Assembly (NCBI GenBank): GCA_036507075.1
Contig: DASXQR010000195.1
Span: 1-18,891 of the forward strand
Length of the DNA stretch: 18,891 nt
Direction: 5' to 3'
Origin: Acidobacteriota bacterium
GTDB taxonomy: Bacteria; Acidobacteriota; UBA6911; JACQSX01
Position numbers and translations under genes: made by a program. Shown one piece after another: positions 103-17,262 of this stretch. Under the pieces are notes generated by a model. That model was not told where the DNA came from and searched no databases. It saw only the letters and a program-made list of their open reading frames with translations. Within the stretch, counting starts at the first letter, position 1; the number at the start of each line of letters is the position of its first letter.

Positions 103-245
103 TTTTCACCACAAAGGCACATCCCGGCCTTGGGCCGCAAGCAAAAAGCAGAGGCTGAGCAATGTGAGCCCGCTTTCAGCGGGCTTTTTGCTTTTCGGTT
201 AGCCCCGGCTTTTCAAGCCGGGGGTAGCCACGAAATAAAACGTGG
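103..245. repeat. Composite repeat cluster: CRCNRAG arm, GGC-loop-GCCGCAA end motif and REP-like hairpins
   Basis: TTTTCACCACAAAGGCACA (103-121) matches the arms at 6751-6810. CGGCC-TTG-GGCCG-CAAGCAAAAAG occupies 125-148. Hairpins: AGCCCGC-TTTCA-GCGGGCT (167-185), CCCCGGCTT-TTC-AAGCCGGGG (203-223) and CCACG-N8-CGTGG (228-245). Confidence 0.75.
167..190 (+). terminator. Possible intrinsic terminator formed by the first hairpin
   Basis: A 7-bp GC-rich stem is followed by a T run (GGGCTTTTTG) downstream of the putative gene ending at 94. It may simply be part of the repeat. Confidence 0.4.
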
Positions 246-292
246 TGGGGCAGGCAAAAAGACAGGTCAGTTCACTCTGAGGTGCTCTTCTG

Positions 293-1540
293 TTGACCCT
301 TAACCGGCTCTGCCTCGTTTTTACGCTAGCCATGCTTGTCGTACGCGCCGAGCCCGTCACACCTTCCCAGGAGCAGGAGTGGCGAAGCCGCATCAAAATG
401 GCGCTGTTCGCGGCAGGTCCCCAGCCGAAGCTCGCTCCCGAGGCTCACGGCACTTTTGAGCCGGCGCCGGGCGTCATTGCCGAGCGCGTCAGCTACGGCA
501 CCCAATTCGACATGCGCGTGCCGGCCATCCTGTACCGGCCGAAGTTGCGGGCCGGCAAGGCGCCGGGTCTGATTGTGGTGAACGGTCACGGGGGTGACAA
601 GTACAGTTGGTACGCCTTCTACTCGGGAATCCTTTACGCCGGCGCAGGCGCCATAGTGCTGACTTATGATCCGGTCGGCGAAGGCGAGCGGAACATCAAC
701 AGAAAATCGGGCACGCGCGCGCACGACAAGGTCGAGCCTCCGCCTGAACTCGGACAGCGCCTTGGCGGGTTGATAATGACCGATGTCATGCAGGCCGTGT
801 CCTACCTGAGCCGGCGGCCCGAGGTAGATAGAAGCCGGCTTGCTGCAATGGGGTACTCGATGGGCTCGTTCGTTCTAAGCTTGACTTGCGCGGTGGAGCG
901 CCGGTTGAAGGCCTGCGTGCTGGTGGGCGGGGGCAATCTAGACGGCCCCGGGGGCTACTGGGACAACTCCAAACCGATGTGCCAGGGCCTTCCATATAAA
1001 TCTCTATTGTTCCTTGGCGACCGACCGGCCGTGTTGTATGCGCTTCACGCTTCCCGTGGTCCCACCCTTGTCTACAACGGTCTGGAAGATACGACTGTGG
1101 CGATCCCGCAGCGTGGCGAGGCGCTGTTCCGCGACCTGCGGGAGCGCGTTGTGAAACTGAGGGGCGACACAGCCGGAGTCTTCGAGACCGACTTCGTTCC
1201 CGGCGCCGGGCACAGACCTTACTTTGTCACCAGGCCGGTGGCCCTGTGGCTGGAGCGGCAGCTCGATTTCCCGAAGTGGACACAAGAGAGCATTCAAGCC
1301 ATGCCCGAGACCCACATCAGCGAATGGGCACTCGCGAACGGCGTGGAGATGGATCCACTCTACTCCAATGAGCATCGGGAAGGAGGTGTGCGCGCGCTGG
1401 GAACCGAAGTGCCCGGACTGACGCGCGAGGACCTGAGCGTCTTCAGCGCAGAGGAATGGGGCAGACGCAGGGAGCGGCTGATTTACGAAACATGGCTGCG
1501 CAAAGCCAAGGCACTCGCCGCACAGCCGATCACGCACTGA
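293..1540 (+). CDS. Secreted alpha/beta-hydrolase (acetylxylan esterase / dienelactone hydrolase-like)
   Basis: 415 aa. TTG start with GAGGTG 8 nt upstream and an N-terminal signal peptide. Motifs: VVNGHGG, YDPVGEGER, nucleophile elbow GYSMG, candidate Asp (GLED) and His (GAGH). Confidence 0.85.
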   Translation: MTLNRLCLVFTLAMLVVRAEPVTPSQEQEWRSRIKMALFAAGPQPKLAPEAHGTFEPAPGVIAERVSYGTQFDMRVPAILYRPKLRAGKAPGLIVVNGHGGDKYSWYAFYSGILYAGAGAIVLTYDPVGEGERNINRKSGTRAHDKVEPPPELGQRLGGLIMTDVMQAVSYLSRRPEVDRSRLAAMGYSMGSFVLSLTCAVERRLKACVLVGGGNLDGPGGYWDNSKPMCQGLPYKSLLFLGDRPAVLYALHASRGPTLVYNGLEDTTVAIPQRGEALFRDLRERVVKLRGDTAGVFETDFVPGAGHRPYFVTRPVALWLERQLDFPKWTQESIQAMPETHISEWALANGVEMDPLYSNEHREGGVRALGTEVPGLTREDLSVFSAEEWGRRRERLIYETWLRKAKALAAQPITH

Positions 1541-1555
1541 AAGCTACGTGCGTTT

Positions 1556-3022
1556 TCAGGACGGCGGAACCAGGGCTATGCGAAGCTGAACTGGTCGAGC
1601 CCTGATTCCACGTAGCCACGGGACTGATACCGGCGGCTGAACCATCAAATTGGGGAAGCGCTTACAGAATCCCGCAAAGTCGGCGGTGGTCGACTCGTCA
1701 AACACGATAACTCCGCCCCGCCTTCTGAGATCCTCATCTCCGGTCCACGGACTTGTCTTTGGGTCGAGGTCAATATAGACGTCCGGACGGTTCTTCAAAA
1801 AAAAGCCGGTGCTATGAGTTGGCTTCATGCTCCCCGCCACTACAGGCAACGGGAAAGCGTAGCGAGCGCGCCATACACTCCCAAGAGTTTCCGCAATATC
1901 GCTTGCTGGATAGAACCTGTCGCTTGGTTTCATGGAAACCAAGTGCGGCGCGAACCTGGCCGCAACAGTTCCAGCCATCATCAGGATCGAAACAACAGCC
2001 ACGACGCAGACAAAGAAGTTCAGCCGTTTCGGAGTCAGTGTCAGTCTAAACGAGGTAAAGATGAGAGCGCCGGTCATTGACCACATCGGTATTTCCCAGA
2101 TTTGCCGCAGCTTAAAACCAAAGACAGCCGAAATTGCCAGCAGTGTCAACAGCGGTCCCAGAACTGCTGCGAAGAGAAACCAGCGACTGAAATGTGTCGA
2201 ACTTGTCGGAGATATGAATCGAAGAGGTCTTGCTACCAAAATCGATGCTGCCAGAAGCATCGGCAAAAGGAGAACCTGGTCACGGAAAAAAAAGACGGGG
2301 TGCAAGACATGTCCGATGAATCCGGCCTTGTTGCCTGCGCGGCCCAACGCGTAATGGATCGTAATGAAATCATGTTCCAGCATCCAGATCAGATGAGGGA
2401 GAGCGATCGCAACAACGGTTCCCAGCGCAAGGTAGGGGCCTGGTTTTCGAAAACATCGACGGGCCGTGGGGTGAAACAATAGAAAGACGGTTATCGGGAA
2501 GAGAAGGAAGACAATTGTATATTTCGCCAGGAAGCCGAGTCCAATCGAAATTCCAAAAAACAGCCAGGGTGCCTTCCGATTCGAGATCAGAGCTCGCCAG
2601 AGGAAAAGAAGTGCCAATACCCATAGGGCCAACAGCACGGTATCGCCATTGAGATTTCTCCCATAGACGTTATAAAAAGGAATGGTTTCCAGGAGCAACA
2701 TGCTGAGCAGGGCCACCGGCACATCCAGGAAATCCAGGGAGAGTTTCCAAACGGCCCACAGGCACAACACCACCAGTAGCTGGATTGCGAGATAGATTAT
2801 CCACAAGTTTCTTCCGGCTGCTTCCAGCAGAAACTCCGTGATCCAGGCGTAAAGAGGAGGGTGTTTGTGATAACCCCACTGCCAGTGATGGGCCCAATTG
2901 CTCGCCTCCATAATGTCAAAATTAGGTGTGGGCAAGCTCAGTGTGAAAACCAGAGTCCATCCAATCAGATGCCAACATGCAACGACCGCCAGGATCGCAT
3001 TGTTGTTTCGAATAAATTGCAT
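1556..3022 (-). CDS. Membrane glycosyltransferase, family 39 / ArnT-PMT-like (GT-C)
   Basis: 488 aa with many hydrophobic segments. Motifs D-x-x-E...WQWGYHKHPPL and GLGFLAKY are typical of ArnT/PMT_2 proteins. Confidence 0.85.
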   Translation of the reverse strand: MQFIRNNNAILAVVACWHLIGWTLVFTLSLPTPNFDIMEASNWAHHWQWGYHKHPPLYAWITEFLLEAAGRNLWIIYLAIQLLVVLCLWAVWKLSLDFLDVPVALLSMLLLETIPFYNVYGRNLNGDTVLLALWVLALLFLWRALISNRKAPWLFFGISIGLGFLAKYTIVFLLFPITVFLLFHPTARRCFRKPGPYLALGTVVAIALPHLIWMLEHDFITIHYALGRAGNKAGFIGHVLHPVFFFRDQVLLLPMLLAASILVARPLRFISPTSSTHFSRWFLFAAVLGPLLTLLAISAVFGFKLRQIWEIPMWSMTGALIFTSFRLTLTPKRLNFFVCVVAVVSILMMAGTVAARFAPHLVSMKPSDRFYPASDIAETLGSVWRARYAFPLPVVAGSMKPTHSTGFFLKNRPDVYIDLDPKTSPWTGDEDLRRRGGVIVFDESTTADFAGFCKRFPNLMVQPPVSVPWLRGIRARPVQLRIALVPPS

Positions 3023-3175
3023 GACAACTGAATTTGATCACATTATGCAGCAGGTAAAAAGTAGCGCCCGCGCACAAGGGCCCGCAGTAATATGCGGCGT
3101 GCACAAGCGCCTAGCTCTTGGCTGTGTCAAAACCACCTCTTAGGCCGCTTGTAGCCGCTTTCCCCAAAAGGTTTC

Positions 3176-3200
3176 AGCCCCGGCCTTTCCAGGCCGGGGT
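3176..3200. repeat. REP-like palindrome, second copy of the 201-224 hairpin
   Basis: AG-CCCCGGCCT-TTCC-AGGCCGGGG-T forms a perfect 9-bp stem. It lies about 50 nt downstream of the sialidase-like gene and could also terminate or stabilise that transcript. Confidence 0.75.
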
Positions 3201-3252
3201 CAGGCATCTGGTCGCTGCTCCAGAAAATTCGTGGCAGATGTCTCTTGCCTCG

Positions 3253-4515
3253 TCACAAAGGTGTGATCCGGTATAAATATGCGTCACCCGCCCATCCTTC
3301 AGGGTGCGCGAACAGGCGTGTCATGTGGACGGAGATCTCCCGCGTGCGGCGATCCTCGCGCGCGTAGAAGTTCGAGAGCGAAAGAATCGGGTCTTCCCCG
3401 GGCTGCAATGTGTCGACTGTCCGCACGCTCGAGCGCATCAGGCGGGCTGTGCGGCGGTCGACCTCTCCGATTACGAAGGGAAAACGCGGGCGATTGCCTC
3501 GCGGATTCTCTGCGGTGATGTTGCCGAGCCAGAAGAGTCGGCCCGACGAGTGGCGCAACAAACGAGAGCAGGCGCTCGGGCTGAAAAACGGTTCGCCCGT
3601 GTCGTAGGTCCACGGCTCGGGGTGTGTCCAGCGCCGGCCGCCATCGGAAGAGAATGCGACCCACCGCCAGCTCGGGAGTTCCGGACGGCGGTCGTTGGAG
3701 CCGCGCAGCACCATGAGCAAGCGCCCGTCGTCGAGGAACTCGATCGTGGGCTCGACCATGCCGCGAGTCGAATGCGCGGGATCGCCCTGGATTACCTGGG
3801 ACATCTCCCATTCGAGGCGATCGCCACGCCAGCGCCCATCGAGGATGGCGGCGTCCGTGTAGGTGTATGCGCCCGTCGGGTTGTAAAGCTTGCCGTCCGC
3901 TCCGAGGGGCGAGATCTCGATTGGAAGCAGGATATGGCCGCCGGAGGTGACAACAGGCACACTGGTCATGTCGCCGAGCATCGCCGAGTTCTTGCCCGTC
4001 CAGACGCCGGGCAGCGGATGCCGCCCGTCAAATTCCGCGCCCGCATGGACCACCTGGAAGGGCGGACCGAATCTGTGGCCGCCATCGCGGGAGATCCTGT
4101 AAAAGATGTTCCAGTTGCGCAGACCCTCGAGCGGGTCGTCCGTAGGAAGGACGCCCTCGATCCAGAATTCGATATAGCGGCGGGTGCGGGCATCAACGAA
4201 GCCGAAACGCGGATGGCGGCGCAGCATGCCTTCCGGGCGGCGCTCGCCTGTGCGAACCTCGAGCGGCATGCTCCAGGTCTGGCCGTAATCCTGCGAGCGC
4301 CGGAAGTAAGCGACATCGATCGTGTCCGAGCGCGACCAACGCTGCTCAATCGAAATCATGTCGCCGCCGCGGTGCCGCGTATAGAAGGCATAAGCCATGA
4401 TCGCGACCCTTTTTGCCGGCGAAGTCAGAAACACTTCGCGTCGAATACCCGGCATTGGGAGGTGCACGAGCCCGGCGGACGCAGCGAGAAACTCGCGGCG
4501 AGAGAGAGGCGGCAT
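3253..4515 (-). CDS. Tat-exported BNR/Asp-box beta-propeller protein (sialidase-like family)
   Basis: 420 aa with twin-arginine motif SRREFL, Asp-boxes SQDYGQTW, SRDGGHRF and SSDGGRRW, and the VEPTIEFLDDGRLLMVLR segment typical of BNR_2 proteins. Confidence 0.85.
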   Translation of the reverse strand: MPPLSRREFLAASAGLVHLPMPGIRREVFLTSPAKRVAIMAYAFYTRHRGGDMISIEQRWSRSDTIDVAYFRRSQDYGQTWSMPLEVRTGERRPEGMLRRHPRFGFVDARTRRYIEFWIEGVLPTDDPLEGLRNWNIFYRISRDGGHRFGPPFQVVHAGAEFDGRHPLPGVWTGKNSAMLGDMTSVPVVTSGGHILLPIEISPLGADGKLYNPTGAYTYTDAAILDGRWRGDRLEWEMSQVIQGDPAHSTRGMVEPTIEFLDDGRLLMVLRGSNDRRPELPSWRWVAFSSDGGRRWTHPEPWTYDTGEPFFSPSACSRLLRHSSGRLFWLGNITAENPRGNRPRFPFVIGEVDRRTARLMRSSVRTVDTLQPGEDPILSLSNFYAREDRRTREISVHMTRLFAHPEGWAGDAYLYRITPL

Positions 4516-4566
4516 GAGTGCATCATACTGGAATGCTCGCCGTCCAGGAGCTGCAATATGGACCGG

Positions 4567-5088
4567 CTATTCGAATAGTCTCTCGACTGTTGCGATGGGG
4601 AGGAAGAGCCGCTTCGGTATTTTGGGCAGTTCTATAAACCCGTACTTCCGATAGAACGCCAACCCCTGGTCGTCCTTCGCGTCAATGATCACTGCCGCCG
4701 ACGCAACCTTCATGCTCCCTGAGAGGCACCGATGAAGCGCATCCATCAGTAACATCTCGCCGAGGCCCCTGCCGCGAAACGCGCTGTCCACCGCCAGACG
4801 ACCGATCAGGGTCGCTGGTATTCGCGGATACTTAGGAAGCTTTCTCGCAATCTCTGGCGGGATTGCGTCCAGTTCAACGGCATACTGCGAGAGCGTGTAA
4901 TACCCGGCGATTGTTTCACCGTCCGAGGAGAGCACAAAGACCACGGCGACACGCTTGCGCATGTCCTGTCGTGCTTGTTTCTGAAGGTAGCTATCAAGAG
5001 CTTGTACGCCGCATGAAAAATTCTTTCGTTTGTGCTGCGGACCGAGGGGCTGAATTTCAAAATTGCCAGTGCGTGTCCGGGCCTGCAC
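4567..5088 (-). CDS. GNAT-family acetyltransferase toxin (AtaT/TacT-like type II TA toxin)
   Basis: Motifs FSCG..LDSYL, IAGYYTL, PATLIGRLAVD, acetyl-CoA loop RGRGLG and FYRKYGF. Directly downstream of a DUF1778 gene. The start codon is uncertain (see findings). Confidence 0.92.
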   Translation of the reverse strand: MQARTRTGNFEIQPLGPQHKRKNFSCGVQALDSYLQKQARQDMRKRVAVVFVLSSDGETIAGYYTLSQYAVELDAIPPEIARKLPKYPRIPATLIGRLAVDSAFRGRGLGEMLLMDALHRCLSGSMKVASAAVIIDAKDDQGLAFYRKYGFIELPKIPKRLFLPIATVERLFE

Positions 5089-5385
5089 TCATAGCCCCAT
5101 GCGTCTCTTGTATCGGCGCGCTGCTGCCTTGGCCGCCGCATTGGGGGCGGGCGGATTCAACAGCGCCTTCACGAACGCGTTGCGCGCTTCATCGCGCAGA
5201 CTCAGGGTCTCGAGATCCTTGATAGTCTCGGCAGCGGCCTGCTGGGCGCTTACGACTACAAAGTCCGTCACCGATGTTCCGCGCAGCTCTGCAGCATGCG
5301 CGATGATCCGTTTTTGCTCGCGCGTGACCCTTGCCTCCAGACGCTCAATCTTTCGAGTCTTGATTCCGGTTTGACGACGTGGCAT
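5089..5385 (-). CDS. DUF1778 ribbon-helix-helix antitoxin (AtaR/TacA-like)
   Basis: 98 aa from ATG 5385 (GAGG upstream; the longer TTG start at 5424 falls inside the promoter). ERLEARVTREQKRII..AA...G.SVTDFVV and LLNPPAPN are DUF1778 hallmarks. Confidence 0.92.
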   Translation of the reverse strand: MPRRQTGIKTRKIERLEARVTREQKRIIAHAAELRGTSVTDFVVVSAQQAAAETIKDLETLSLRDEARNAFVKALLNPPAPNAAAKAAARRYKRRMGL

Positions 5386-5400
5386 TTGTCCTCTCAAGTC

Positions 5401-5429
5401 ATTGTACGGCAGAAAGCCGTACAACTCAA
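5401..5429 (-). promoter_or_regulatory. Sigma70-type promoter of the TA operon with overlapping operator palindrome
   Basis: The minus strand reads TTGAGT (5429-5424), 17 nt, TACAAT (5406-5401). A perfect inverted repeat TTGTACGGC-AGAAA-GCCGTACAA (5402-5424) covers the spacer. Confidence 0.85.
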
Positions 5430-5451
5430 CTGGGATTGTTGAGATCCACGT

Positions 5452-6279
5452 TCAAGGCTCGGCCACCACAGGAACTCCCAGGAACTTGCCTTCAGGAAAA
5501 AATACGTCAACGGCGCCTACCGCAATCGGGGTGTTGGAATCGAAAAGCACCGAGCCTTCCGAACCAGGATCACAGTTCGGAAAAAAATCAGGTATGTAAA
5601 AGTTGCGTCGGGCCAGTGGGAGAATGGTGAGGGAAGTTGAGCAAAGTGGTTTCCCTTGCCGGTCCAACGCATCGACCCTGATTAGTGCTGGCTGGTCGGC
5701 GGAGGCATTGACCACTGCGTACGCTGTCCGTCGCAGCTCCGCCCCGCCATTCGGCGCAATGTACCCAAACGTCCTGCGTCTGAACTCGGAAGCGTTGAAG
5801 AATGGGGCTCGGAAACGCCTGGCAGGTCGAACTGCGTCAAGACGGGTGGTGCCTGTCAATTCCTGTTCAAAAACGCCACCTGGGCGAAACTGAAAAGTTG
5901 AAATGCTTGCCCAGACAAGCACCCTCTGACCTGCAGGGACAGCGGTACGCGCCCAACCGTTGTGTTCGAGTACTACGATATCGAGCTCCCTGGGGAATTC
6001 CACCATTCCGTTCACTGGAACAGCCGAAGCGCCGGTCGACAAAAAATTCCCGCCGTTGCTGCTGAAAAACTGCATTCTCGGTTGAAACTCACCCGGCCCA
6101 AGATTCAAAAATCCGTAAAGCGTCCGGTGAATGGGTACATCTGACCGGAGCAAGTCCACGGCAATCGGAAAGATGACTTGTTCATCAATACTTGGCGCTT
6201 GCGCCAACAAATCCGGCGCGGAACTCAGATAGAAGCACAATGGGAAGAAGAAAGCGCTGATGATTCGGACAAATCTCAT
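5452..6279 (-). CDS. Secreted hypothetical protein, probably two beta-sandwich domains
   Basis: 275 aa from ATG 6279 (AGGAG upstream) with a signal peptide ending LLAQA. Two similar halves: FLNLG...QFFSSNG...GWARTAV and VVNAS...DALDRQG...GSVLFDSNTPI. Confidence 0.7.
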   Translation of the reverse strand: MRFVRIISAFFFPLCFYLSSAPDLLAQAPSIDEQVIFPIAVDLLRSDVPIHRTLYGFLNLGPGEFQPRMQFFSSNGGNFLSTGASAVPVNGMVEFPRELDIVVLEHNGWARTAVPAGQRVLVWASISTFQFRPGGVFEQELTGTTRLDAVRPARRFRAPFFNASEFRRRTFGYIAPNGGAELRRTAYAVVNASADQPALIRVDALDRQGKPLCSTSLTILPLARRNFYIPDFFPNCDPGSEGSVLFDSNTPIAVGAVDVFFPEGKFLGVPVVAEP

Positions 6280-6488
6280 GGGTATCTCCTGTGACTGTAA
6301 AGATGCGGCTAGGAGGGAAAAGGTGGCGGGGGACAACATCTTCGAGGGTAGGCTTTCATCTCGGGGTCATTGCGCCAGGTTGATTGTCAAGCTATTCTGG
6401 AATTACTCACTTACGAGTGATTGGGATACTACCGCTGACAGCGATCTGCCGGCGGACAGGCTGGTTTTGCCAGGAAAGGACAAAAATA

Positions 6489-6740
6489 ATGTCGCTTCTG
6501 TGGATGATTATCATTGGATTGATTGTGGGAGCTCTTGCAAAGCTTATAATGCCGGGAAGAGATCCGGGTGGCATCATCGTGACTATCCTGCTCGGGATCG
6601 GCGGGGCGTTACTGGCCGGTTTCCTCGGCCGCAGCATGGGGTGGTATGCCGAAGGCCAAGCCGCCGGATTCCTTGCCTCTCTGGTTGGCGCCATCCTGCT
6701 GCTGATGTTGTACAGACTGATAGCCCGCCGGCACGCCTGA
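6489..6740 (+). CDS. GlsB/YeaQ/YmgE family (transglycosylase-associated) membrane protein
   Basis: 83 aa from ATG 6489 (GGAAAGGA upstream). WMIIIGLIVGALAKLIMPGRDPGG..TILLGIGGA...SLVGAILLL is the family signature. Confidence 0.93.
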   Translation: MSLLWMIIIGLIVGALAKLIMPGRDPGGIIVTILLGIGGALLAGFLGRSMGWYAEGQAAGFLASLVGAILLLMLYRLIARRHA

Positions 6741-6750
6741 GGAGCTTTTG

Positions 6751-6806
6751 CACCACAAAGACACCAAGGCACCAAACAAGATAGGTGCCTTTGTGTCTTT
6801 GTGGTG
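6751..6806. repeat. Periodic inverted repeat (CRCNRAG family), possible bidirectional terminator
   Basis: CACCACAAAGACACCAAGGCACC (6751-6773) and GGTGCCTTTGTGTCTTTGTGGTG (6784-6806) are 22/23 complementary with a 10-nt loop and an 8-nt internal period. It lies between convergent genes. Confidence 0.9.
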
Positions 6807-6874
6807 AAAATTCGATGTGCGGCACTCCACGTCCTGAGTATGCTGCACAATCAGTATTACTCAAGACACCAAAC

Positions 6875-8389: not shown

Positions 8390-8407
8390 ATTCAAAACCT
8401 CATGAAG

Positions 8408-8444
8408 TACTTTGTACTATAAAGTAGATCAAGACAGAAGGCAA
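8408..8444 (-). promoter_or_regulatory. Candidate promoter and operator for the radical SAM gene
   Basis: The minus strand reads TTGCCT (8444-8439), 17 nt, TATAGT (8421-8416). The inverted repeat TACTTT-N7-AAAGTA (8408-8426) is centred on the -10 box. Confidence 0.6.
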
Positions 8445-8508
8445 GCCTCAGACACCCTGTACTACTAACCATGAGAATTTTAGCGGCCCGCGCAAATTAT
8501 TCGGGAGC

Positions 8509-8579
8509 GGAGAGACGGCCTGAGGGCCGTCTCAGCTTGGCAGAACACCGCAGAGAGACGGCCCTCAGGCCGTCTCTCC
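8509..8579. repeat. REP doublet (REPIN-like)
   Basis: GGAGAGACGGCCTGAGGGCCGTCTC at 8509-8533 has its exact reverse complement at 8555-8579, 21 nt apart. Each copy is GGAG plus an 8-bp stem with a 4-nt loop. Confidence 0.88.
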
Positions 8580-8582
8580 TTG

Positions 8583-8690
8583 ACTTTTGGTTGCGGCTTC
8601 GCCGCGCTAAGCCCCTGCGCCACTGATTTCGCATTTTCGCGCCTTCGCGGTTCCGGCTTTTTCGCACTCTTTGCAGCCTTAGCTGGCTCT
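8583..8690 (-). repeat. GGC-loop-GCCGCAACCAAAAG end motif plus two solo CRCNRAG-type arms
   Basis: Minus strand: AGCTAAG-GC-TGCAAAG-AG-TGCGAA (about 8684-8661), AACCGCGAAG-GCGCGAAA-ATGCGAAA (8652-8627), then GCGGC-GAA-GCCGC-AACCAAAAG (8605-8584). Confidence 0.75.
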
Positions 8691-8801
8691 CTGGATTCAT
8701 TCCTCCGCACCCTCCGTTAACACTTTCCCGGATGGATCGTCTTGCGGGAAGATAGGGCGGGTGTTCGAACAAGTGATCGAGCCGGTGGGTGAATATCATG
8801 A

Positions 8802-8860
8802 GGGAGGGATAGAGTGGGAGAGTGGGAGAGGGGGAGAGTGGTAGAGGGGGAGAGCGAGAG
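8802..8860 (+). repeat. Purine-rich 8-nt tandem repeat (AGAGTGGG-like, 6 units)
   Basis: AGAGTGGG AGAGTGGG AGAGGGGG AGAGTGGT AGAGGGGG AGAGCGAG at 8811-8858 ends 4 nt before the permease ATG. Two further GGG tracts lie at 8802-8808. Confidence 0.9.
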
Positions 8861-8862
8861 GA

Positions 8863-11196
8863 ATGGTCCACAATCTTCGCCATAGCATTCTTCTTATAAA
8901 TTCCCAACCGGGTTTCACAGTAGTGACGGTGCTGGCGCTTGGCCTGGGGATCGGTATCAACTGTGCGCTGTTTACAGTGGTGAACAGCCTGTTGCTTCGT
9001 CCACTGCCGTACCAGAACGCGGCTGAGCTGGTGGAGATCACGCTGCCGGAACGCCGCCCGGCGCTCGAAGATCTGCGGCGCGCCAGATCCTTTGCGGGCG
9101 TCGCCGGCTTTATTTCGCGCGGTTTCAGCGTGACGACGCCGGAGGGCGTGAGAAACATCTATGGCATTCGCGTTTCGGCAAATCTGTTCGAACTTTTAGG
9201 AGTTCAGGCTGCGGCAGGCAGGAGATTCTCGCCTGAGGAAGATCAACAACCCGTCGTGATGCTAAGCTACGACTACTGGCGGAGGATCTCGGGCGATACC
9301 AAGATCGTCGGCCGGACGCTGACTCTTTCCGGAGAGAAACACACCATTGTTGGGATACTGCCTGCCGGGTTCACGCTGCAGGTTCGGGATGCCAATTTAT
9401 TCATCCCCTATCGGCTGACCGAGGGAAGAGTAGTGGCGCGTCTGAGTCTCGGCGTCTCTTTGGCACAGGCGCACGCCGAAGTGGCGGCGCTGCTTCGTGG
9501 AATGGAATCGCAGCCGGCCCGTGCCAATCGCCCGCCCGGGACACTGGTAATCCCGCTCTCGCAAGCCTTTCGTAACAGTGAAGTCCGGACGGTTCTTCTG
9601 CTCCAGGCTACCGCAGGACTGGTGTTGTTGATTACCTGCGCCAATTTGGCGAACTTGTCGCTGGTGCGCGCAGCGGCGCGGCGCAAGGAGTTCGCTGTCC
9701 GCGCGGCTCTGGGCGCCCGGCCGTCCCAGTTGCTGCACCAACTCATGATTGAGAGCGCGCTGCTGGCTGCGATGGGCGGGCTGCTGGGATTGCTGCTCGC
9801 AAAGTGGAGCCTCGACTTTCTCCAGGCGAATCTGCCCGCCAACATCGGGCGCACCCTGAGAGGCGTCGAGGCCTTGTCCATCGATCACCGGGTGCTCGCT
9901 TTCACGGCGGGCATATCGGTGTTGACGCTTCTACTTTTCGGGCTGCTCCCGGCGATCAGTTCTCTGCGCTTCGACGTTATGCCGGTGTTGAGAGATTCGA
10001 GCAGGAGTTCAACGCCGCGTCAAAGATTCGGTCAACTGCTTGTGATCGCAGAAGTGGGGCTGGCTCTGATGCTCCTGATCGGCGCGGGACTTACGCTCAA
10101 GAGTCTTGTCGGACTGCAGAACGCCGACCTGGGATTCAGCGCCGACCACATACTGCGAGGCGCCGTGGACCTGCTGCCTTCGCGCTATCCGCAGCCGGAG
10201 CAGCGCGTCGCGGTTTTCGCCGAGATCGTGCGCCGATGCCGTGCGCTGCCCGGAGTGGAAACGGTTGGCGTACTGGCGCCGCAGTTTTTTCCATTCGGCG
10301 GGCCGCGCGTTCGAGGCTCTCTCTTCGAGATTCAGGGCCGGCCGGAGCTGCAAGCCCGGGCGGAAGTGTACGTCGCAAATCCCGATTACTTCCGTTCCGT
10401 ACGCATTCCTCTGCTTAAAGGCCGGATGTTCACCGGAGCGGATACAGACGCATCCACTCCGGTCGCCCTCATCAGCGAGATCGTCGCGCGTCGTTACTGG
10501 GGCCAGGAAGATCCGGTGGGCCGCCTGATCCGCCTGCAGGCGGAGAGCCCCGACAGTTCCTGGGTAACGATTGTCGGTGTGGTCGGCAACGTGCGAAATC
10601 CCGTCGCCCTCGATGTACAGCCGACTGCATACCGCCCCTTTGCGCAAACGCCTTCGACCGGCGCGATCTTGATGATCCGCACCGCCGGCGATCCCATGGC
10701 GCTGGTGGAAACGGTTCGCAAGGAACTTCGCGCCATCGATCCTACCGCCCCCGAGATGCGCGCTGCCGGCCTGGAGAGGGCTGTGTGGAGTTACGTGTCG
10801 CCCCAGCGCTTTACGACATCGTTACTTGGATTCTTTGCCGGGTTAGGCCTGTTACTGGCGGCTGTCGGCGTCTACGGAGTGATGCGCTACTGGGTCGGTG
10901 CGCGGATGTCCGAGATCGGCATACGAATCGCTCTGGGGGCGCAGCGCAAGGATGTGTTGTGGCTCGTATTCGGCAGGGCGGGGAGGGCAGCACTGATGGG
11001 CGTGGTGCTCGGCATCGCCGGAGCCCTCGCTCTACAGCGGGTGATTGCCAGTCAGCTCTATGGAGTGAGCCCCACAGATCCTGCCGTCTTCGTTGCAATC
11101 TCGGCGCTGATGGGCCTCGTGGCACTAGGCGCCGCTCTCCTGCCCGCGTTGTGGGCGGCACGGGTCGATCCACTTGTGGTTCTGAGGCATGAGTAG
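8863..11196 (+). CDS. Duplicated MacB/FtsX-type ABC permease (ADOP, acidobacterial duplicated orphan permease)
   Basis: 777 aa with motifs PGFT...LALGLGIG.N.ALF..VN..LLRPLPY, LLITCANLANL..R...R.KE.AVR.ALGA, EVGLALMLLIGAGL, EIGIRIALGA and the C-terminus A.RVDP...LRHE. No ATPase gene is adjacent. Confidence 0.93.
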   Translation: MVHNLRHSILLINSQPGFTVVTVLALGLGIGINCALFTVVNSLLLRPLPYQNAAELVEITLPERRPALEDLRRARSFAGVAGFISRGFSVTTPEGVRNIYGIRVSANLFELLGVQAAAGRRFSPEEDQQPVVMLSYDYWRRISGDTKIVGRTLTLSGEKHTIVGILPAGFTLQVRDANLFIPYRLTEGRVVARLSLGVSLAQAHAEVAALLRGMESQPARANRPPGTLVIPLSQAFRNSEVRTVLLLQATAGLVLLITCANLANLSLVRAAARRKEFAVRAALGARPSQLLHQLMIESALLAAMGGLLGLLLAKWSLDFLQANLPANIGRTLRGVEALSIDHRVLAFTAGISVLTLLLFGLLPAISSLRFDVMPVLRDSSRSSTPRQRFGQLLVIAEVGLALMLLIGAGLTLKSLVGLQNADLGFSADHILRGAVDLLPSRYPQPEQRVAVFAEIVRRCRALPGVETVGVLAPQFFPFGGPRVRGSLFEIQGRPELQARAEVYVANPDYFRSVRIPLLKGRMFTGADTDASTPVALISEIVARRYWGQEDPVGRLIRLQAESPDSSWVTIVGVVGNVRNPVALDVQPTAYRPFAQTPSTGAILMIRTAGDPMALVETVRKELRAIDPTAPEMRAAGLERAVWSYVSPQRFTTSLLGFFAGLGLLLAAVGVYGVMRYWVGARMSEIGIRIALGAQRKDVLWLVFGRAGRAALMGVVLGIAGALALQRVIASQLYGVSPTDPAVFVAISALMGLVALGAALLPALWAARVDPLVVLRHE

Positions 11197-11284
11197 TCGA
11201 ACTTGAACTTAGCCACCTGGGAAGCCTTTCGTAAATTACGGCATCTGGCCAGTACAGGTTAGATACTGATTGGATCGTGTCGGC

Positions 11285-11341
11285 GAGCCCCTTCCGGTCG
11301 CGGGTCGGTGGCTGGGCGTCGGCGCTGTCTCACACCGACCC
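11285..11341. repeat. Degenerate REP-like inverted repeat between convergent genes
   Basis: GGGTCGGTG (11302-11310) and CACCGACCC (11333-11341) form a perfect 9-bp inverted repeat, preceded by GC-rich CCCCTTCCGGTCGC. Confidence 0.45.
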
Positions 11342-11359
11342 TCATAGTGCAAGGATCCT

Positions 11360-12628
11360 TCAACTCAAATCCAGAGCCATGATGGTCTTTCGATCGCGAA
11401 TGTACAGTTTGGTCCCGGCGAGCGTCGGTGGCGTCCAGGCCCTGTTCGTCAATACAGGTACTTTTGAAATTACTTTCATCCCTTCTCGTGAGAGCCGGAC
11501 GAGCGCAAGGTTGCCGTCTTCATCGAGCAAGATTACTTTTCCGTCCGCATAAACGAAGTTGGTTTTCGGAAAGCTGAGGTTCTGCCAGACAACGCTTCCG
11601 GTTTTCACGTCCAGCGCGGTCATCGGAGCGGGACCGAAATCGCCGCTCGATCCAAACACCAGATCGCCCAGGCGAACCATCGTGCTGTGATGGACGCGCA
11701 TCCTGCGGCTGGCCCACAACTCTTTGACGGTGGTCTTGCCGCCGGATTGACTGAGTTGCAGCGCCCGACTGCCGCCGCTGTAGGCGGATGAAACGAAGAG
11801 AATGTTGCCTTCGCCCCACAACGGCAGGGAGATGTTGAGTCCCCAGTCGCACGGATGAGGATGGCTCCAGAGCAGCTCGCCGTTATTCGGAGTGAGACCG
11901 ACGATCTTGTCGGCCAGAACAATCACAAGCTGATCCTGGCCGTCGACAGTGATGATCAGTGGGGTCGAAGGCGACAGGTCGAAGTCTTGCTTCTTCCAGG
12001 CGATCGCCCCGCTCTTCTGATCGAAGGCTATCAGCGCCTGACCCGGTCCGCCCACTGTGACGATTACCATGCCTTTGTAGGCAAGCGGGCTGCATGAATA
12101 CCCGCGCCCCATTCGTTGTCCGCCATAATCCTTGTAGAGGTCGTGCGACCAAACAACTTTGCCGGTCATTTTGTCGAGAGCATGCATCTTCCCCACCACG
12201 CCGACGGTGAAAAGCAAATTGCCAACGACGAGCGGGGTTGAATGCGGGCCGTTGCCGTTTTCCAATTTGAGCCCGGCGGTCGGCGCTTCATAACTCTTTT
12301 CCCAGACAGTTTTGCCGCTGGCCGCATCGAGCGCGATGACAGACTCCTGGTCGTCTTTGCTGTACATCGTGTACAGCCGGGCGTTATCGACTACGATCGA
12401 GGAATGCCCTTCGCCAAGAGCGCGGCTCCACAACTGTTTCGGACCGGTAGCCGGCCATGAATCGGCCAGCCCTTTCGCCTCGATCATGAAATTCCGATGC
12501 GGCCCGCCCCATTGCGGCCAGGCGGGGGCCTGAGCGTGTACACCATTACCTGACAACACAAGGAAGGCCAGACAAAACCAACTTGTTGTCAACGCCTGTG
12601 CATTCGTTCTTAATCCCGGCAATCTCAT
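11360..12628 (-). CDS. Secreted PQQ-binding-like beta-propeller repeat protein (BamB-like fold)
   Basis: 422 aa with a signal peptide, WPQWGGPHRN and repeated ALD..(S/T)GK.VW blades, ending WTPPTLAGTKLYIRD. GGGAGG upstream. Confidence 0.9.
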   Translation of the reverse strand: MRLPGLRTNAQALTTSWFCLAFLVLSGNGVHAQAPAWPQWGGPHRNFMIEAKGLADSWPATGPKQLWSRALGEGHSSIVVDNARLYTMYSKDDQESVIALDAASGKTVWEKSYEAPTAGLKLENGNGPHSTPLVVGNLLFTVGVVGKMHALDKMTGKVVWSHDLYKDYGGQRMGRGYSCSPLAYKGMVIVTVGGPGQALIAFDQKSGAIAWKKQDFDLSPSTPLIITVDGQDQLVIVLADKIVGLTPNNGELLWSHPHPCDWGLNISLPLWGEGNILFVSSAYSGGSRALQLSQSGGKTTVKELWASRRMRVHHSTMVRLGDLVFGSSGDFGPAPMTALDVKTGSVVWQNLSFPKTNFVYADGKVILLDEDGNLALVRLSREGMKVISKVPVLTNRAWTPPTLAGTKLYIRDRKTIMALDLS

Positions 12629-12662
12629 TTACTTAGTCCCTCCCGGCATGCGAAATTTGTAA

Positions 12663-13580
12663 TCATTCACCGGCGGGGCGTGTTGCTGCGGATTGATCGT
12701 TGAGGGATCTGGGTCCAGCCCTTTGTGACTGCTCGACCTTGGCGAGCCCAATCGGTGCCCGGGCGATCACAATGTTGTCCAGGTAGAGGTGAATGTCGTC
12801 GCCAGGCACCGGCGTCGCGCCGCCGTGGTACACATTCATCCAGATCTCCTCGATCCGGAGCGTGTTCAAGTCCCGAAAGCGTATGTCGGTCTTTTCGAAG
12901 GCAAACTGGCCGTCGATCCATCCACGAAGGATGCCGTCGTTCCGACCCTTTCCCGCTGCGTCAGCGGGCGCGTTCAGCTTGCAGTACTGCTCGACCGAGT
13001 ACCATCGCCCGTGTTGGAGACTCGGCTTGAAGGCCCAGTGCTCGCCGTATATGCCTTTCATATCTGCGTGGTAGCAGTAAAAGCCCACGGTTGTGAAACT
13101 CGCTCCAGGCCGCGTGTCGAACAGCCCACGCGCGGACCAGCCATCGCTGCCGTTGACGCGTCTGCCGCCCCATCCGGCTCTGCCGTAGGTACCGCTGATC
13201 CCCGGAAGCTTCCCGCCGGACGTGGCGTTGCGCCAACTCGGGTCGAACTTGAGGTAGTAGCGAAAATAGATCTCCTCCGGCTCCGCGCCGGTCTGCTGCC
13301 GAAATTTGTAGGCAAAACTAGTGCCCATGTGCTCGTCGCGCCGAACGGTCACCTTAAGGCTCCTCCCCTTGAATGCCCCTTCTCCGTCCACGAGCGACGT
13401 GTTGTCGGGCGGCTTTTGCATCCCCCAGGCGCGCCACCAGTCGTCCGTCTCGAAGCCGCAGAAAAGGAGCACATCCTTGCGCCCGGCGAGCGCCGGTTCG
13501 ATCCGGTCGCTACCTTCGTTTGCCTGATAGGCAGTGCTGTAGGCGAGGCTGAAGATTAGTACTAGAGCAAAGAATCTCAT
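12663..13580 (-). CDS. Secreted polysaccharide lyase-like protein (PL14-like beta-jelly roll)
   Basis: 305 aa from ATG 13580, where the signal peptide starts. Motifs YFRYYLKF, GGKLPG, GWSAR, GRWYSVEQYCKLN, DGILRGWIDG, DIRFR and YHGG. Confidence 0.75.
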   Translation of the reverse strand: MRFFALVLIFSLAYSTAYQANEGSDRIEPALAGRKDVLLFCGFETDDWWRAWGMQKPPDNTSLVDGEGAFKGRSLKVTVRRDEHMGTSFAYKFRQQTGAEPEEIYFRYYLKFDPSWRNATSGGKLPGISGTYGRAGWGGRRVNGSDGWSARGLFDTRPGASFTTVGFYCYHADMKGIYGEHWAFKPSLQHGRWYSVEQYCKLNAPADAAGKGRNDGILRGWIDGQFAFEKTDIRFRDLNTLRIEEIWMNVYHGGATPVPGDDIHLYLDNIVIARAPIGLAKVEQSQRAGPRSLNDQSAATRPAGE

Positions 13581-13641
13581 GGGTCTTCCCCGCATCCGAG
13601 CCGCGCGCGTAAGCAAGGTGTGAAAAAATCAAAAAAGCTTA

Positions 13642-13782
13642 AACCGCGAAGTACGCGAAGCATCTAATGGACCTAGTCATGTCATTCCGTAAATATTTTA
13701 TACTGTTCGACAAACGCCCCGCAGTCGCAGTGCGACAAAACTGGAATTAATACACTTCGCGTGCTTCGCGCTCTTCGCGGTT
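13642..13782. repeat. Periodic inverted repeat (CRCNRAG family) enclosing a spacer of about 90 nt
   Basis: Left arm AACCGCGAAG-TACGCGAAG-CA (13642-13662). The right arm reads AACCGCGAAG-AGCGCGAAG-CACGCGAAG on the minus strand (13782-13755). 9-nt period. Confidence 0.88.
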
Positions 13783-13806
13783 CAATTTTTTCTCACGTTC
13801 TAATTG

Positions 13807-13878
13807 CGCCAATTTCACGACTTTCACGAATTTGAAATTCAAGTTCGTGAAATTCGTGAAATTCGTGAAATTCGTGTT
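13807..13878. repeat. Periodic inverted repeat, CACGAAT variant
   Basis: (TTCGTGAAA)x3 plus TTCGTG at 13844-13876 faces AATTTCACGACTTTCACGAA (13811-13830), 19/20 complementary. It abuts the stop codon at 13881-13883. Confidence 0.9.
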
Positions 13879-13880
13879 GC

Positions 13881-14231
13881 CTAACGCGGTTTTGCCTTCT
13901 CATACGCCCGTTCCAACCACTGCAACGCCTCGTTAATATCACTTGCCGATCCGATCTCGAACGCAACCCAGCCGGCGCCTGGCCTGCCCGCAATCCTGAG
14001 TCGATCATCCCGCGCCCTGGGCAACTTGAAGAGCACAGATGTCTCTGTCCCTGCCGCTCGTGTCCGCGGCACCGCGGCAAAGATATTCTTGCCACGGTAG
14101 AACGCGACCATCCCGAACATCGGCTTGGTCTTCACGTGCGGCCATTTCAAGAGCTCTTCTTCCAGCAGCGCGCACCAGCGCTGCATTTCGATGCCGATTT
14201 TCCAGAGCTTTGGCATACGCCCAACGGGCAC
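13881..14231 (-). CDS. Small TfoX N-terminal-like / YjbR-like protein
   Basis: 116 aa. V..KPMFG...FY....IFA and W.......ALQWLERAYE resemble TfoX_N/YjbR folds. The start is GTG 14231 or ATG 14216. Confidence 0.55.
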   Translation of the reverse strand: MPVGRMPKLWKIGIEMQRWCALLEEELLKWPHVKTKPMFGMVAFYRGKNIFAAVPRTRAAGTETSVLFKLPRARDDRLRIAGRPGAGWVAFEIGSASDINEALQWLERAYEKAKPR

Positions 14232-14276
14232 TTTGACGGAGACAATCCGACTTCGAAAATCTAAATCGGGTTTTCT

Positions 14277-14489
14277 CTACTTGCGGGTCTCTTCCACCAG
14301 GAATGCGATCTTCACGGTGGCTTTGTACTCGGTGATTTTGTTTTTCACCACTTTCGCAGTCATGTCACGTACCTCGACGCCGCTGATCCCTTTCACCGTC
14401 TCGGCGGCCTCGGCGACAGCGTTACGAACCGCGTCCTCCCAACCTTTCGTAGAATTTCCCACTATCTCGATTATCTTGGCAACAGCCAT
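14277..14489 (-). CDS. Dodecin family (flavin-binding) protein
   Basis: 70 aa, VAKIIEIVG.S.KGWEDAV..AV.EA..TVKGI...EV......V....ITEYK..VKIAF. AGGAAGG upstream. Confidence 0.93.
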   Translation of the reverse strand: MAVAKIIEIVGNSTKGWEDAVRNAVAEAAETVKGISGVEVRDMTAKVVKNKITEYKATVKIAFLVEETRK

Positions 14490-14584
14490 GGTACCTTCCT
14501 TTCGCGCTCATTTTATCAAAGCCGGGAAATGTCATGGTTGGTGCGCAACTTCCAAAGCTTGTCTGTCCCGTGCAGGCTAGGAGT

Positions 14585-14694
14585 CTTTCTGTGTCCTCTG
14601 TGTATCAGGTTGCATTCACCGCAGAGCCGCAAAGAACGCCGAGTTTCCGCAGAGTTTCATCACAACCTCAGTGAAACTTGGCGTTCTCGGCGGC
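14585..14694. repeat. CRCNRAG-family arms: one solo arm and one inverted pair with a truncated right arm
   Basis: Minus-strand solo arm ACACAGAG-GACACAGAAAG (14603-14585). Left arm TTCACCGCAGAGCCGCAAAGAACGCCGAGTTTCCGCAGAG (14615-14654). The right arm (14667-14694) lacks its outer 11 or so nt. Confidence 0.85.
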
Positions 14695-14796
14695 GCTCCC
14701 CGCACTTTGCCCTGCGCCGAAATCAGGAGCCCACAGCGCAAGCGCGCTCAGGCCGCCAAGCTTAAGAAACAAACGACGGTCAATGCCTTTTTGCAT
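14668..14796 (-). pseudogene. Truncated gene: only a Tat signal peptide remains
   Basis: ATG 14796 (GGAG upstream) encodes MQKGIDRRLFLKLGGLSALALWAPDFGAGQSAGS, then reads into the repeat arm (AAENAKFH) and stops at 14668-14670. Confidence 0.7.
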
Positions 14797-16132
14797 GGAT
14801 AGACTCCGCCTGCATGCCGTCTCCGACGAGGGCGCATTCGAATCCGGAAGGCTGCGATAGCCCAATGGGGTCGCGGGTCCGACTTGAGGCATTGGTGATG
14901 AAGAAAAGGAGAATGAGAAGCGCGAAACCTCCGCCCAGCATTGCCAGGAAGCCGCTCCCCAGCCAAAGCGCGAATGTTCGCGTACCATTGACATAGGCAA
15001 GGATCCATTTCACGATGGCATTCGCTGTCACGCCGATCAAGATTGCCACGACGGCTGCCATAATCGAGAGCGATCCCGCTCCAACCAACTTGGCTATTGA
15101 GAACGCGATCGCGCTGACGTCGCCTGCACCGGCAACAACGCTTCCCAGGTAAATTCCGCGCGCACCCCAGTACACCGTGACCACCTTCGAAAACAGCAAA
15201 ATGCAGACAAAAAATGCGGCGAACTTGAGAGCCGGAATCAGTGAGTAGGGATTCTCAACTGGAAGGTCGTCCATGCCTGTGTACTTTGTGCCACGCGAAA
15301 TTAACAAAGCGCCGACCAGGCCAATGACCGCCATCCCTATCAGTGGAAGGCTCAGAAACTTTCCGAGGTGCCGGTCTCCGATCCAAACGAACAGCAAGAG
15401 GCGAGGGAACTGCGCCGCATTGGCGAGGATCGCGGCGACCCCACAGGCTCGCGATTGTTGCGGCTCTTCCCGGGCGCGGCCGGCGAGTGAGAGTGTTGCG
15501 GCCGTCGTTGAAACAATGCCGCCCGCGATCCCGCTGATCAGAAGGCCGCGGTTCTTCCCCAGGCAGCGCATTAAGACATAACCGGAAAAGCTTATGGTCG
15601 AAAAGAGAATCACGAGGAGCCAGACATGTGTGGGGTTAAAAAAGTTGTAGGGACCAATATCGCGGTCGGGCAGCAGAGGGAGCACCAGGAACACCACTGC
15701 CAGAAACTTTACGGTATCGTAAAACTCCGTCTCACTGACTGTCTTCTTCACAAAGTCGTGAATCTTCCGCTTTGATGCCAGAAGAATCACCAAAGCCACG
15801 CTTGTACTGACAGCCAGCGATTCGTATTTATACACGAGGAATCCGAGCCAAAAAGTCAACAGCCCGGCAGCCTCTGTTGTGATGCCGATGCTCTTGGTTG
15901 AATGCCGGTAGTAGCCGATGCACAGCAGAATAATCAGGCCTGCAAAAGTGACCAGGGTGAATCCTGGCTGGTCAAGTACCGCGCACACCGCTCCCAGGAG
16001 TGCAAAAAGTGCGAAGGTGCGCACCCCCGCTTCCTTTTCCTCGCCCGGCTGGCGGGCTTTGTAGCGCTCGACCCCGACCAACAAACCGATAGCCAGTGCT
16101 TCTGCGAAGACTTTGAAGACTTGGGTACTCAT
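14780..16132 (-). CDS. MgtC/SapB family membrane protein with DUF4010 domain
   Basis: 450 aa. N-terminal ALAIGLLVGVER...AGVRTF.L and GITTEAA (MgtC), followed by LPLLPD...GP...FNP..VWLLV.L.S.ISF.GY, GG.VSTTAAT and NP.SL..ALKF (DUF4010). Confidence 0.9.
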   Translation of the reverse strand: MSTQVFKVFAEALAIGLLVGVERYKARQPGEEKEAGVRTFALFALLGAVCAVLDQPGFTLVTFAGLIILLCIGYYRHSTKSIGITTEAAGLLTFWLGFLVYKYESLAVSTSVALVILLASKRKIHDFVKKTVSETEFYDTVKFLAVVFLVLPLLPDRDIGPYNFFNPTHVWLLVILFSTISFSGYVLMRCLGKNRGLLISGIAGGIVSTTAATLSLAGRAREEPQQSRACGVAAILANAAQFPRLLLFVWIGDRHLGKFLSLPLIGMAVIGLVGALLISRGTKYTGMDDLPVENPYSLIPALKFAAFFVCILLFSKVVTVYWGARGIYLGSVVAGAGDVSAIAFSIAKLVGAGSLSIMAAVVAILIGVTANAIVKWILAYVNGTRTFALWLGSGFLAMLGGGFALLILLFFITNASSRTRDPIGLSQPSGFECALVGDGMQAESIHAKRH

Positions 16133-16285
16133 AAAAACTGCAGTTCCACAAAAAATATTTGTGTGCCCACTGTATACGCCGGGTTCGGAATAAGGTTTAA
16201 TAAAGCCAAGCGGTCCACTCCCTTGGGAAAATCGGGACGCCTCACGTAAATGCCTCGGTCATTATCAAAGATGAAGGATATTACT

Positions 16286-17220
16286 ATGAAGACATTCGTA
16301 ATCACATTCATTGCGTCCTTAATTCTGCTCTTGCTCACCTGCAGCGCGCTGGCGCAGGATCCGCGGGGTTTGATTCGCGGGCGGGTGACGGACGCCACCG
16401 GCGGCATCGTCGTGGGCACGCGGGTGGTGGCGGTCAACACGGAAACGCAAACACGGGCTTCCGCTGAAACCAATGCTGAAGGGCTGTACAACATTCCCTT
16501 TCTGCTGCCCGGCACATACATCGTTACAGCCGAATTGCCTGGCTTCAAGGTCTACTCACGCTCCGGCGTTCAGGTGCGGGTCAGCGAGACTACAGACCTG
16601 AATATCCAGATGGAACTGGGAGAAGTAACCGATCCATGGAGCGCACCGCAAGCTTTGCCATGCAGGATAAATTTCTTGGCGTCTACCTTCATGACGATTT
16701 TAAGGTGAGCGCAAAGCTCACGTTGAATCTGGGACTTCGTTACGAACTCGAGACGCCGCTTACGGAGCGTTTCAATCGGCTGGTAGGCGGTTTTGCTTTT
16801 GGCACACCCAATCCCGTTGAAGCAGCGGCGCGGGCGAATTACGCCGAGTCCCCGATCCCTGAACTTCCGCCTGACCAGTTCCATGCTCTGGGTGGTTTGA
16901 CCTGGGCCGGTCAGGGAAGCAACGGCCGCAGTCCGTTTAGAACGGAAAAGAACAACTTCATGCCGCGTTTCGGTTTTGCCTGGCTGTTCAGTCCCCGGGC
17001 TACACTGCGGGGCGGCTATGGCGTTTTCTACGACACCATCGGCGTTAATGCCACACGCGCTATTCAGACCGGTTTTTCGCAGACCACTCCCATCCAGGCC
17101 TCACTCAACGAGGGATTGACCTATATTGCCAGTACGGCCAATCCTTTCCCAAACGGCCTGCTTGCGCCGCTTGGTCCCGCAGGCGGATTGGCTAACCTTG
17201 GCCAATCGCTCGAATTTTAT
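16286..17220 (+). pseudogene. TonB-dependent receptor pseudogene (carboxypeptidase regulatory-like N-terminus), internally deleted and 3'-truncated
   Basis: A signal peptide plus G.I.GRVTDATGG.V.G..V...N..T...TN.EG.Y....LLPG.Y.V.AE..GFK runs to about 16632. It then jumps, out of frame, to the mid-barrel segment YLHDDFKV..KLTLNLGLRYE...NNFMPRFGFAW...LRGGYGVFYD and breaks off at a repeat arm at 17221. Confidence 0.88.
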
Positions 17221-17222
17221 TT

Positions 17223-17262
17223 CTCTGCGAAATCTCAGCGTGCTCAGCGCCTCGGCGGTGAA
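17223..17262 (-). repeat. Solo CRCNRAG-family arm, inverted relative to 14615-14654
   Basis: The minus strand reads TTCACCGCCGAGGCGCTGAGCACGCTGAGATTTCGCAGAG, 32/40 identical without gaps to 14615-14654. Confidence 0.88.

Follow-up and report, generated by a model that had tools for sequence, protein, structure and literature searches.

Introduction

Homing endonuclease genes spread by allele conversion through flanking homology, cleaving the element-free allele whilst sparing the filled one. Bacterial miniature inverted-repeat transposable elements (MITEs) descend from a parent that carries a gene between inverted ends and have lost the gene or other internal parts, and DNA uptake sequences consist of one uniform motif distributed across the core genome, including coding DNA. 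Here we describe a family of inverted heptamer arrays (arms) in an 18,891-nt stretch of DNA from an Acidobacteriota bacterium (the window; contig C195:1-18891 of a 6.1-Mb assembly in 233 contigs) and compare it with these and other described systems. With moderate confidence, we favour the reading that the window repeats are gene-less copies of a selfish cassette encoding the small predicted nuclease GxxExxY (TIGR04256, PF13366), spread by break-and-recombine. In this lineage, the spread would probably take place during natural competence. Named relatives of one encoded protein, together with the family structure, likewise suggest an acidobacterial origin of the window.

The arms share with homing endonuclease genes a nuclease gene apparently spreading by allele conversion with flanking homology. 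They differ in having no intron or intein, many unrelated sites and a candidate recognition motif inside the element itself. As with MITEs, copies that lack the gene or have internal deletions occur beside a parent in which inverted ends flank the gene. Membership of the DDE-transposase MITEs was rejected, as there is no duplication of at least 5 nt and no fixed terminal base, and the parent encodes a 125-aa protein of predicted PD-(D/E)XK fold rather than a DDE transposase. Repetitive extragenic palindromic (REP) doublets forming hairpins (REPINs) and their REP-associated tyrosine transposases (RAYTs) also combine hundreds of intergenic inverted doublets, singlets and clusters with a single dedicated nuclease gene that has these repeats on its flanks (PMC3116915). 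Their enzyme is a tyrosine (HUH) transposase and their repeat a short palindrome, whereas the arms here are phased heptamer arrays that closely enclose a PD-(D/E)XK-type gene and form outward pairs of fixed spacing. The repeats are, as REPINs are, dispersed extragenic hairpin-forming inverted doublets; they were not assigned to REPIN-RAYT since the flanked gene is GxxExxY and only 1/12 Y1 transposase loci has an arm, a weak one.

Rpn/YhgA genes resemble the present system in placing a PD-(D/E)XK gene in operon spacers, with different versions at one junction and recombination via DNA breaks, and the allele pattern of rpnC is similar to the spacer swapping reported below (PMC5350276). Those proteins belong to PF04754, little sequence specificity is reported for them and the available part of that paper mentions no flanking arrays, whilst GxxExxY proteins are ~125 aa long. 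The TAACTGA/STRR (short tandemly repeated repetitive) sequences are likewise plentiful intergenic heptamer arrays with a patchy phylogeny and a mechanism that is not known, yet theirs are contiguous direct 7-mers and those here have 8–10 nt spacing, inverted pairs and a link to GxxExxY (PMC4679880).

The initial annotation had set the repeats apart from integron attC sites and clustered regularly interspaced short palindromic repeats (CRISPR), which was borne out. Dispersal through the genome in all orientations inside conserved operons ruled out attC cassettes (no search for an integrase was made), and identical direct repeats with unique spacers of even length, as in a CRISPR array, were not found. 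Uptake sequences were rejected on account of the many subtypes and of the location of arms, 51/1,756 of which lie in gene cores. A search of Rfam gave no match for the repeats. The repeats do conform to derivatives of a GxxExxY (TIGR04256) cassette, in that arms of the same kind flank GxxExxY genes. A literature search that left out most subscription journals and all supplements found no published description of the arms or of an arm-GxxExxY link, and neither occurs in the available parts of PMC12378983 and bioRxiv 2021.01.26.428298; the heptamer-arm element is thus probably undescribed.

Results

Inverted heptamer arrays in the window and across the genome

Arms were defined as runs of the heptamer CRCNRA(G/T) with spacers of 1–3 nt. 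The window contained 10 two-heptamer arms against 0.99 expected and 5 three-heptamer arms against 0.005 expected (200 order-2 Markov simulations), and the genome contained 1,221 three-heptamer arms against ~2 expected (order-5 model), confirming that the repeat family is real. AACCGCGAAG occurred exactly three times in the window, as first reported (13642, 13773 and 8643; 0.09 expected). Four inward pairs and one lone arm were clean, three arms were degenerate and one was doubtful (Table 1). Most of the annotated arm positions stood; the doubtful arm has no exact heptamer and two others have one each.

Genome-wide, 1,756 strong arms fell into 1,135 clusters (463 inward pairs, 154 outward pairs, 445 lone arms and some composites), with a heptamer period of 8–10 nt and a density of approximately one arm per 3.5 kb. 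The window itself was ordinary in this respect, with 4 strict clusters versus 3.5 expected at the genome-wide density. Only 3% of arms lay in gene cores compared to 69% of random positions (based on our own open reading frame (ORF) caller). This intergenic enrichment had been proposed as a check, and in the window too the arms were outside intact genes, that at 17223-17260 lying in the open frame of a truncated TonB-receptor gene.

Partner arms were more alike (identity 0.81 across the 463 inward pairs) than shuffled arms of the same subtype (0.75, standard deviation 0.004) or all arms (0.53), in agreement with the initial annotation. Its statement that paired arms always face inwards failed, given the outward pairs. 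In 113/154 of these, 16–18 nt (mode 16–17 nt) separated the first heptamers, around an A/T tract; the single outward-facing junction in the window, 14585-14640, is degenerate. No flanking 5-mer duplication was enriched at any offset among 461 inward and 148 outward elements.

GxxExxY genes lie between the same arms

The parent cassette is ~0.5 kb long and consists of inverted heptamer arrays around a small GxxExxY gene. The genome had six GxxExxY matches, four with strict arms and two with degenerate arms judged by eye; one copy (C152) has an internal deletion with both arms intact. The window encodes unrelated genes and zero GxxExxY genes. Across a sample of the phylum, an inward arm was present within 170 nt at 25/29 GxxExxY loci (both sides at 18), compared to 0 and 1 of 29 control windows. 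In a metagenome sample an arm was present at 58/65 fully flanked loci and inward on both sides at 44, with fewer than 0.5 per side in shuffles; these 65 were what was left of 80 after dropping 5 without the anchor motif and 10 with a short flank. Both sets were the best-scoring matches rather than random draws. The single GxxExxY locus on viral contigs also had arms, a scan of a genome collection gave five loci (two with strict arms, three without), and GxxExxY occurred in 8 of 72,556 plasmid records.

Co-occurrence pointed the same way. Amongst 200 genomes searched for both features, at least 10 arrays occurred in 63/79 GxxExxY-positive and 17/121 GxxExxY-negative genomes (17/120 without the unpublished negative G052), and the association had the same direction in 14/17 mixed families. 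In a tree of 41 proteins, all 8 associated with T-ending heptamers formed one clade (support 96/89), apart from the 27 associated with G-ending heptamers. These data support two earlier suggestions: that the repeats are a dispersed non-autonomous element, seen here as gene-less copies of a gene-bearing parent, and that GxxExxY is its partner. In the related check on ORF families between paired arms, GxxExxY genes were arm-flanked, and 39 wide inward pairs (180–1600 nt apart) enclosed diverse host-gene ORFs, often with arms of unlike subtype.

At four loci (L030, L047, L021 and L109) the GxxExxY genes lay between outward-facing or direct-repeat arms, which hints at circular or tandem intermediates.

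GxxExxY is a predicted nuclease

PF13366 appears in a listing of the PD-(D/E)XK superfamily with function unknown (PMC3424549). In the ~125-aa protein, D67, E77 and K79 were invariant in 35 sequences. A structural model (predicted local distance difference test score 95.5) gave top structural matches that were mostly PD-(D/E)XK nucleases, the best being Cas4 SSO0001 (Z 7.9, root-mean-square deviation 3.0, 99 residues aligned). Foldseek gave no match to the model at E up to 0.001, nor did a profile of the 35 proteins match the sequences of solved structures at E up to 1. The model thus places a conserved D...ExK core in a restriction-endonuclease-like fold, and GxxExxY is accordingly a predicted nuclease.

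Alleles of element-bearing spacers among relatives

Elements occupied three consecutive spacers of one operon in this genome (a housekeeping operon that, judging by sequence motifs, we take to comprise pgk, tpiA and secG), and the gene order was kept in three relatives (G001, G002 and G004). The pgk-tpiA spacer was 101 nt in this genome and 22 nt in G004. Conservation of gene order around occupied spacers means that the elements need no synteny break. The idea that they mark junctions between unrelated genes in a cassette mosaic was therefore abandoned, all the more as just 5/16 gene junctions in the window bear arms.

Alleles of single spacers varied within genera. In genus g55, one spacer (presumably between a thiolase and a dehydrogenase gene) was compared in 30 of 41 genomes; 16 alleles were short, 5 full and 2 partial, and 7 were hairpins. 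The alleles, of several subtypes, were scattered within well-supported clades of the flank trees. In genus g81 (30 of 37 genomes), 19 alleles of one junction had no arms, and the rest were five full, one extended and two deleted cassettes, two hairpins and one lone arm. This junction also accommodated several unrelated small genes. Comparison of G122 with three relatives (~80–99% identical in the compared stretches) showed that 9/10 comparable sites differed in at least one relative, the usual difference being exchange of the entire spacer as far as the flanking genes, with no precise ends. This covered 4/8 stretches, after removal of three sites without both flanks in the relatives and three chance in-gene matches. 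One assembly (G251; L192 and L198) contained two alleles of one spacer, one of them a complete GxxExxY cassette and the other a hairpin without the gene, possibly representing a population polymorphism or a binning mix.

A promoter-like motif common to GxxExxY and competence genes

A two-box motif (TTCGCA, ~17 nt, GTTATGT, with an A/T tract upstream) scored at least 18 before 36/4,178 called genes. These included recA, ssb, dprA, comEA, comEC, radC, recG, recQ, a pcrA-like helicase and a pilin gene. The motif also precedes comM; some of these competence and recombination labels fall below curated cut-offs. With the retrained matrix (see below), 5/6 GxxExxY genes of this genome scored 19–35; with the first matrix, 99% of all genes had scored below ~15. 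Amongst held-out relatives, 7/11 GxxExxY loci scored at least 16 and 33 control windows scored at most 8.8. In several cassettes the motif followed the left arm and preceded the start codon; in others it was just outside the arm. From its shape and gene content, we infer that it is a promoter, of competence rather than SOS type. Its ~36 sites in genome G000 (examples: C111:347-1438, C100:18005-20569 and C110:8723-9820) would then mark a candidate competence regulon of this family, to which small selfish genes of three kinds also belong.

Discussion

How the arms may spread

In the mechanism we propose, subunits of the GxxExxY protein would bind the heptamers phased at 8–10 nt and the predicted nuclease would cut near the A/T-rich outer flank. 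Another copy, or homologous DNA entering the cell, would serve as the template for repair of the break, through recombination or template switching and not through cut-and-paste transposition. Such repair would convert the spacer, homogenise partner arms and yield the fixed back-to-back junctions of 16–18 nt, and expression alongside the DNA-uptake genes would make cutting coincide with the entry of donor DNA. This break-and-recombine model would explain why arms are symmetric, why duplications are missing and ends imprecise, why spacers are swapped and why outward spacing is fixed.

Several observations weigh against this reading. Concerning the partner, 17 array-rich genomes had no detected GxxExxY gene and 16 gene-bearing genomes were array-poor, the co-occurrence counts include kin and are not independent, the match between clade and heptamer subtype amounts to a single event, and the best fold score (Z 7.9) is inside the range that the tool gives for common arrangements. 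Concerning competence, the motif was first spotted upstream of mobile genes, after which the matrix was retrained on 10 non-mobile sites. Neither the window nor 29 GxxExxY loci belonging to other families had it, and just 8 of the 1,135 clusters did; it also preceded Y1/RAYT genes (8/11 within 290 nt) and four-helix-bundle genes (6/7). Concerning mobility, the comparison of empty and filled sites that had been proposed at the outset gave full, gene-less and element-free alleles among relatives but no clean empty site of a plain heptamer hairpin within the genome, where joining of flanks gave only nested repeats. No joint removing an element was seen in four DNA runs on the window, whose contigs omit rare variants and are hence uninformative on excision. 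The sole precise empty site shows an 8-bp duplication and is that of a separate MITE carrying the hairpin, and the 14617 subfamily also occurs in a MITE elsewhere with an apparent TA duplication; heptamer hairpins inside MITEs imply that part of the spread is hitchhiking. Finally, the short g55 allele includes a heptamer, which could make it a decayed element and leaves gain and loss unpolarised, and the scattered alleles could come from ordinary recombination between co-occurring species.

Other explanations of the repeats

The hairpins might instead be of REPIN or MITE type, moved in trans by a RAYT or DDE transposase, with GxxExxY as a captured passenger or addiction gene. The 12 Y1 transposase matches in the genome, two subfamilies carried by MITEs that have terminal repeats and target duplications of their own, and the REPIN-like doublet architecture (PMC3116915) all fit this view. 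We nevertheless judge it unlikely, as a heptamer arm was near just one Y1 locus (several Y1 genes have other palindromes instead) and 1/7 four-helix-bundle loci, plain elements have no flanking duplication, and arm subtype tracks the GxxExxY tree.

There is a slim chance that the arms are host signals for natural transformation, similar to uptake sequences and multiplied by molecular drive, in which case GxxExxY would be a processing factor of the host. Their density, their inverted pairs and the place of GxxExxY in an apparent competence regulon are compatible with this, and Neisserial uptake sequences also form close inverted pairs (PMC2397512). Against this, 97% of arms are outside gene cores, one genome has many subtypes side by side, and GxxExxY is encoded inside the arms, in several and often broken copies.

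Ordinary terminators or mRNA-stabilising hairpins conserved in place are very improbable as a general explanation. Arms are intergenic, a median of 31 nt past the preceding stop codon, and are modestly more common between convergent genes (29% versus 21%), and some sites may have a secondary role as terminators. Yet G.U on the sense strand was not preferred over A.C (171:147, p = 0.2), 55 inward pairs sit between divergent genes, orthologous spacers are not conserved and the repeats have no Rfam match. Least credible are integron-like recombination sites that shuffle neighbouring genes and build the mosaic. In their favour, one lone arm coincides with the truncation of a TonB gene, in G003 the gene found upstream of 13642 adjoins a different gene, direct repeats enclose some GxxExxY genes and the g81 junction contains several unrelated small genes. 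Against them, elements occupy the three consecutive syntenic spacers of the housekeeping operon, the 39 wide inward pairs enclose diverse host genes with arms often of different subtype, and the density in the window equals the genome average.

Features of the window

Table 1 Heptamer arms of the window, with positions, strand and remarks.
Feature	Position	Strand	Remarks
Lone arm, CAC + CACAAAG + partial unit	103..121	+	One full heptamer; broken off at 122 by a GCCGCAACCAAA-type hairpin repeat
Inward pair, CACAAAG/CACCAAG subtype	6751..6806	.	Between convergent genes; 18 related genome matches at >=80%; DNA hairpin energy -25.7 kcal/mol
Degenerate lone arm, AACC-GCGAAG outer end	8627..8652	-	Single exact heptamer 8643-8649; 3 related loci
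Possible decayed arm, doubtful	8661..8684	-	Zero exact heptamers
Inward pair, CGCGAAG subtype, interior ~95 nt	13642..13782	.	Similar stretches in relative G003
Inward pair, CACGAAT subtype, left arm degenerate	13807..13878	.	53 related genome matches
Degenerate CACAGAG arm	14585..14602	-	One exact heptamer; back-to-back with 14617 arm at 17 nt
Inward pair, CGCAGAG subtype, right outer end lost	14617..14692	.	25 matches, best 93-98% identical
Lone right arm, CGCCGAG/CGCTGAG, clean	17223..17260	-	Where the TonB-receptor remnant loses its match to the paralogue; spanned by an X2 contig

The window as a whole had no close relatives, with 30 relatives having only single genes or repeats in common with it; contigs of runs X1 and X2 matched it piecewise (for example 8588-13873 and 15834-17694), and X1 may be the sample of origin. 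The 14617 subfamily is young and its other copies are often inside a separate MITE. The TonB remnant (16250-17331) has lost ~500 internal residues and its C-terminal part relative to a paralogue of 1155 aa. Its second break coincides with the lone arm, which starts at residue 196; the BLAST match stops at residue 205 of 231.

GCCGCAACCAAA-type hairpins, a second kind of repeat, were present at 122-147 and 8586-8609. Across the genome, 68/88 copies had a heptamer at most 12 nt upstream, mostly after ACAG, TTAG or GCAG; this position directly in heptamer arms suggests a second element that targets them, making lone arms. Other REP-type palindromic repeats were found at 201-225, 3176-3200 and 8509-8579, the last being a pair whose arms match perfectly over 25 nt and whose contig depth was very high in both X1 and X2. 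A run of GAGAGTG/GGGAGA heptamers occupied 8810-8860, and similar runs adjoin a four-helix-bundle gene on C231. Half of a CCGCGCGCGTAAGCAAGCGG palindrome, from an abundant family that elsewhere encloses heptamer hairpins, lay at 13596-13617. The stretch 4567-6339 encodes a GNAT + TacA-like toxin-antitoxin pair and an upstream gene; in an 86% identical copy on C127 the antitoxin is kept and the GNAT gene is reduced to a fragment.

Implications

The arms and their partner may represent a new class of selfish element, in which a 125-aa PD-(D/E)XK nuclease reads its own phased arrays, sits in the competence regulon of the host and converts intergenic spacers during natural transformation, spreading itself and a thousand gene-less hairpins without a transposase, target duplication or fixed ends. 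We put this forward tentatively, as a proposal that stands a real chance but falls short of even odds. If true, it would be a PD-(D/E)XK-driven counterpart to REPIN-RAYT. For the widespread GxxExxY family (PF13366), the repeats provide a candidate substrate and, with one repeat at more than 1,000 loci per genome, a direct assay. The pairing of array subtypes with protein clades could reveal how a tiny nuclease gains specificity from iterated sites, and the putative competence-type promoter points to a testable way for small selfish repeats to exploit natural transformation.

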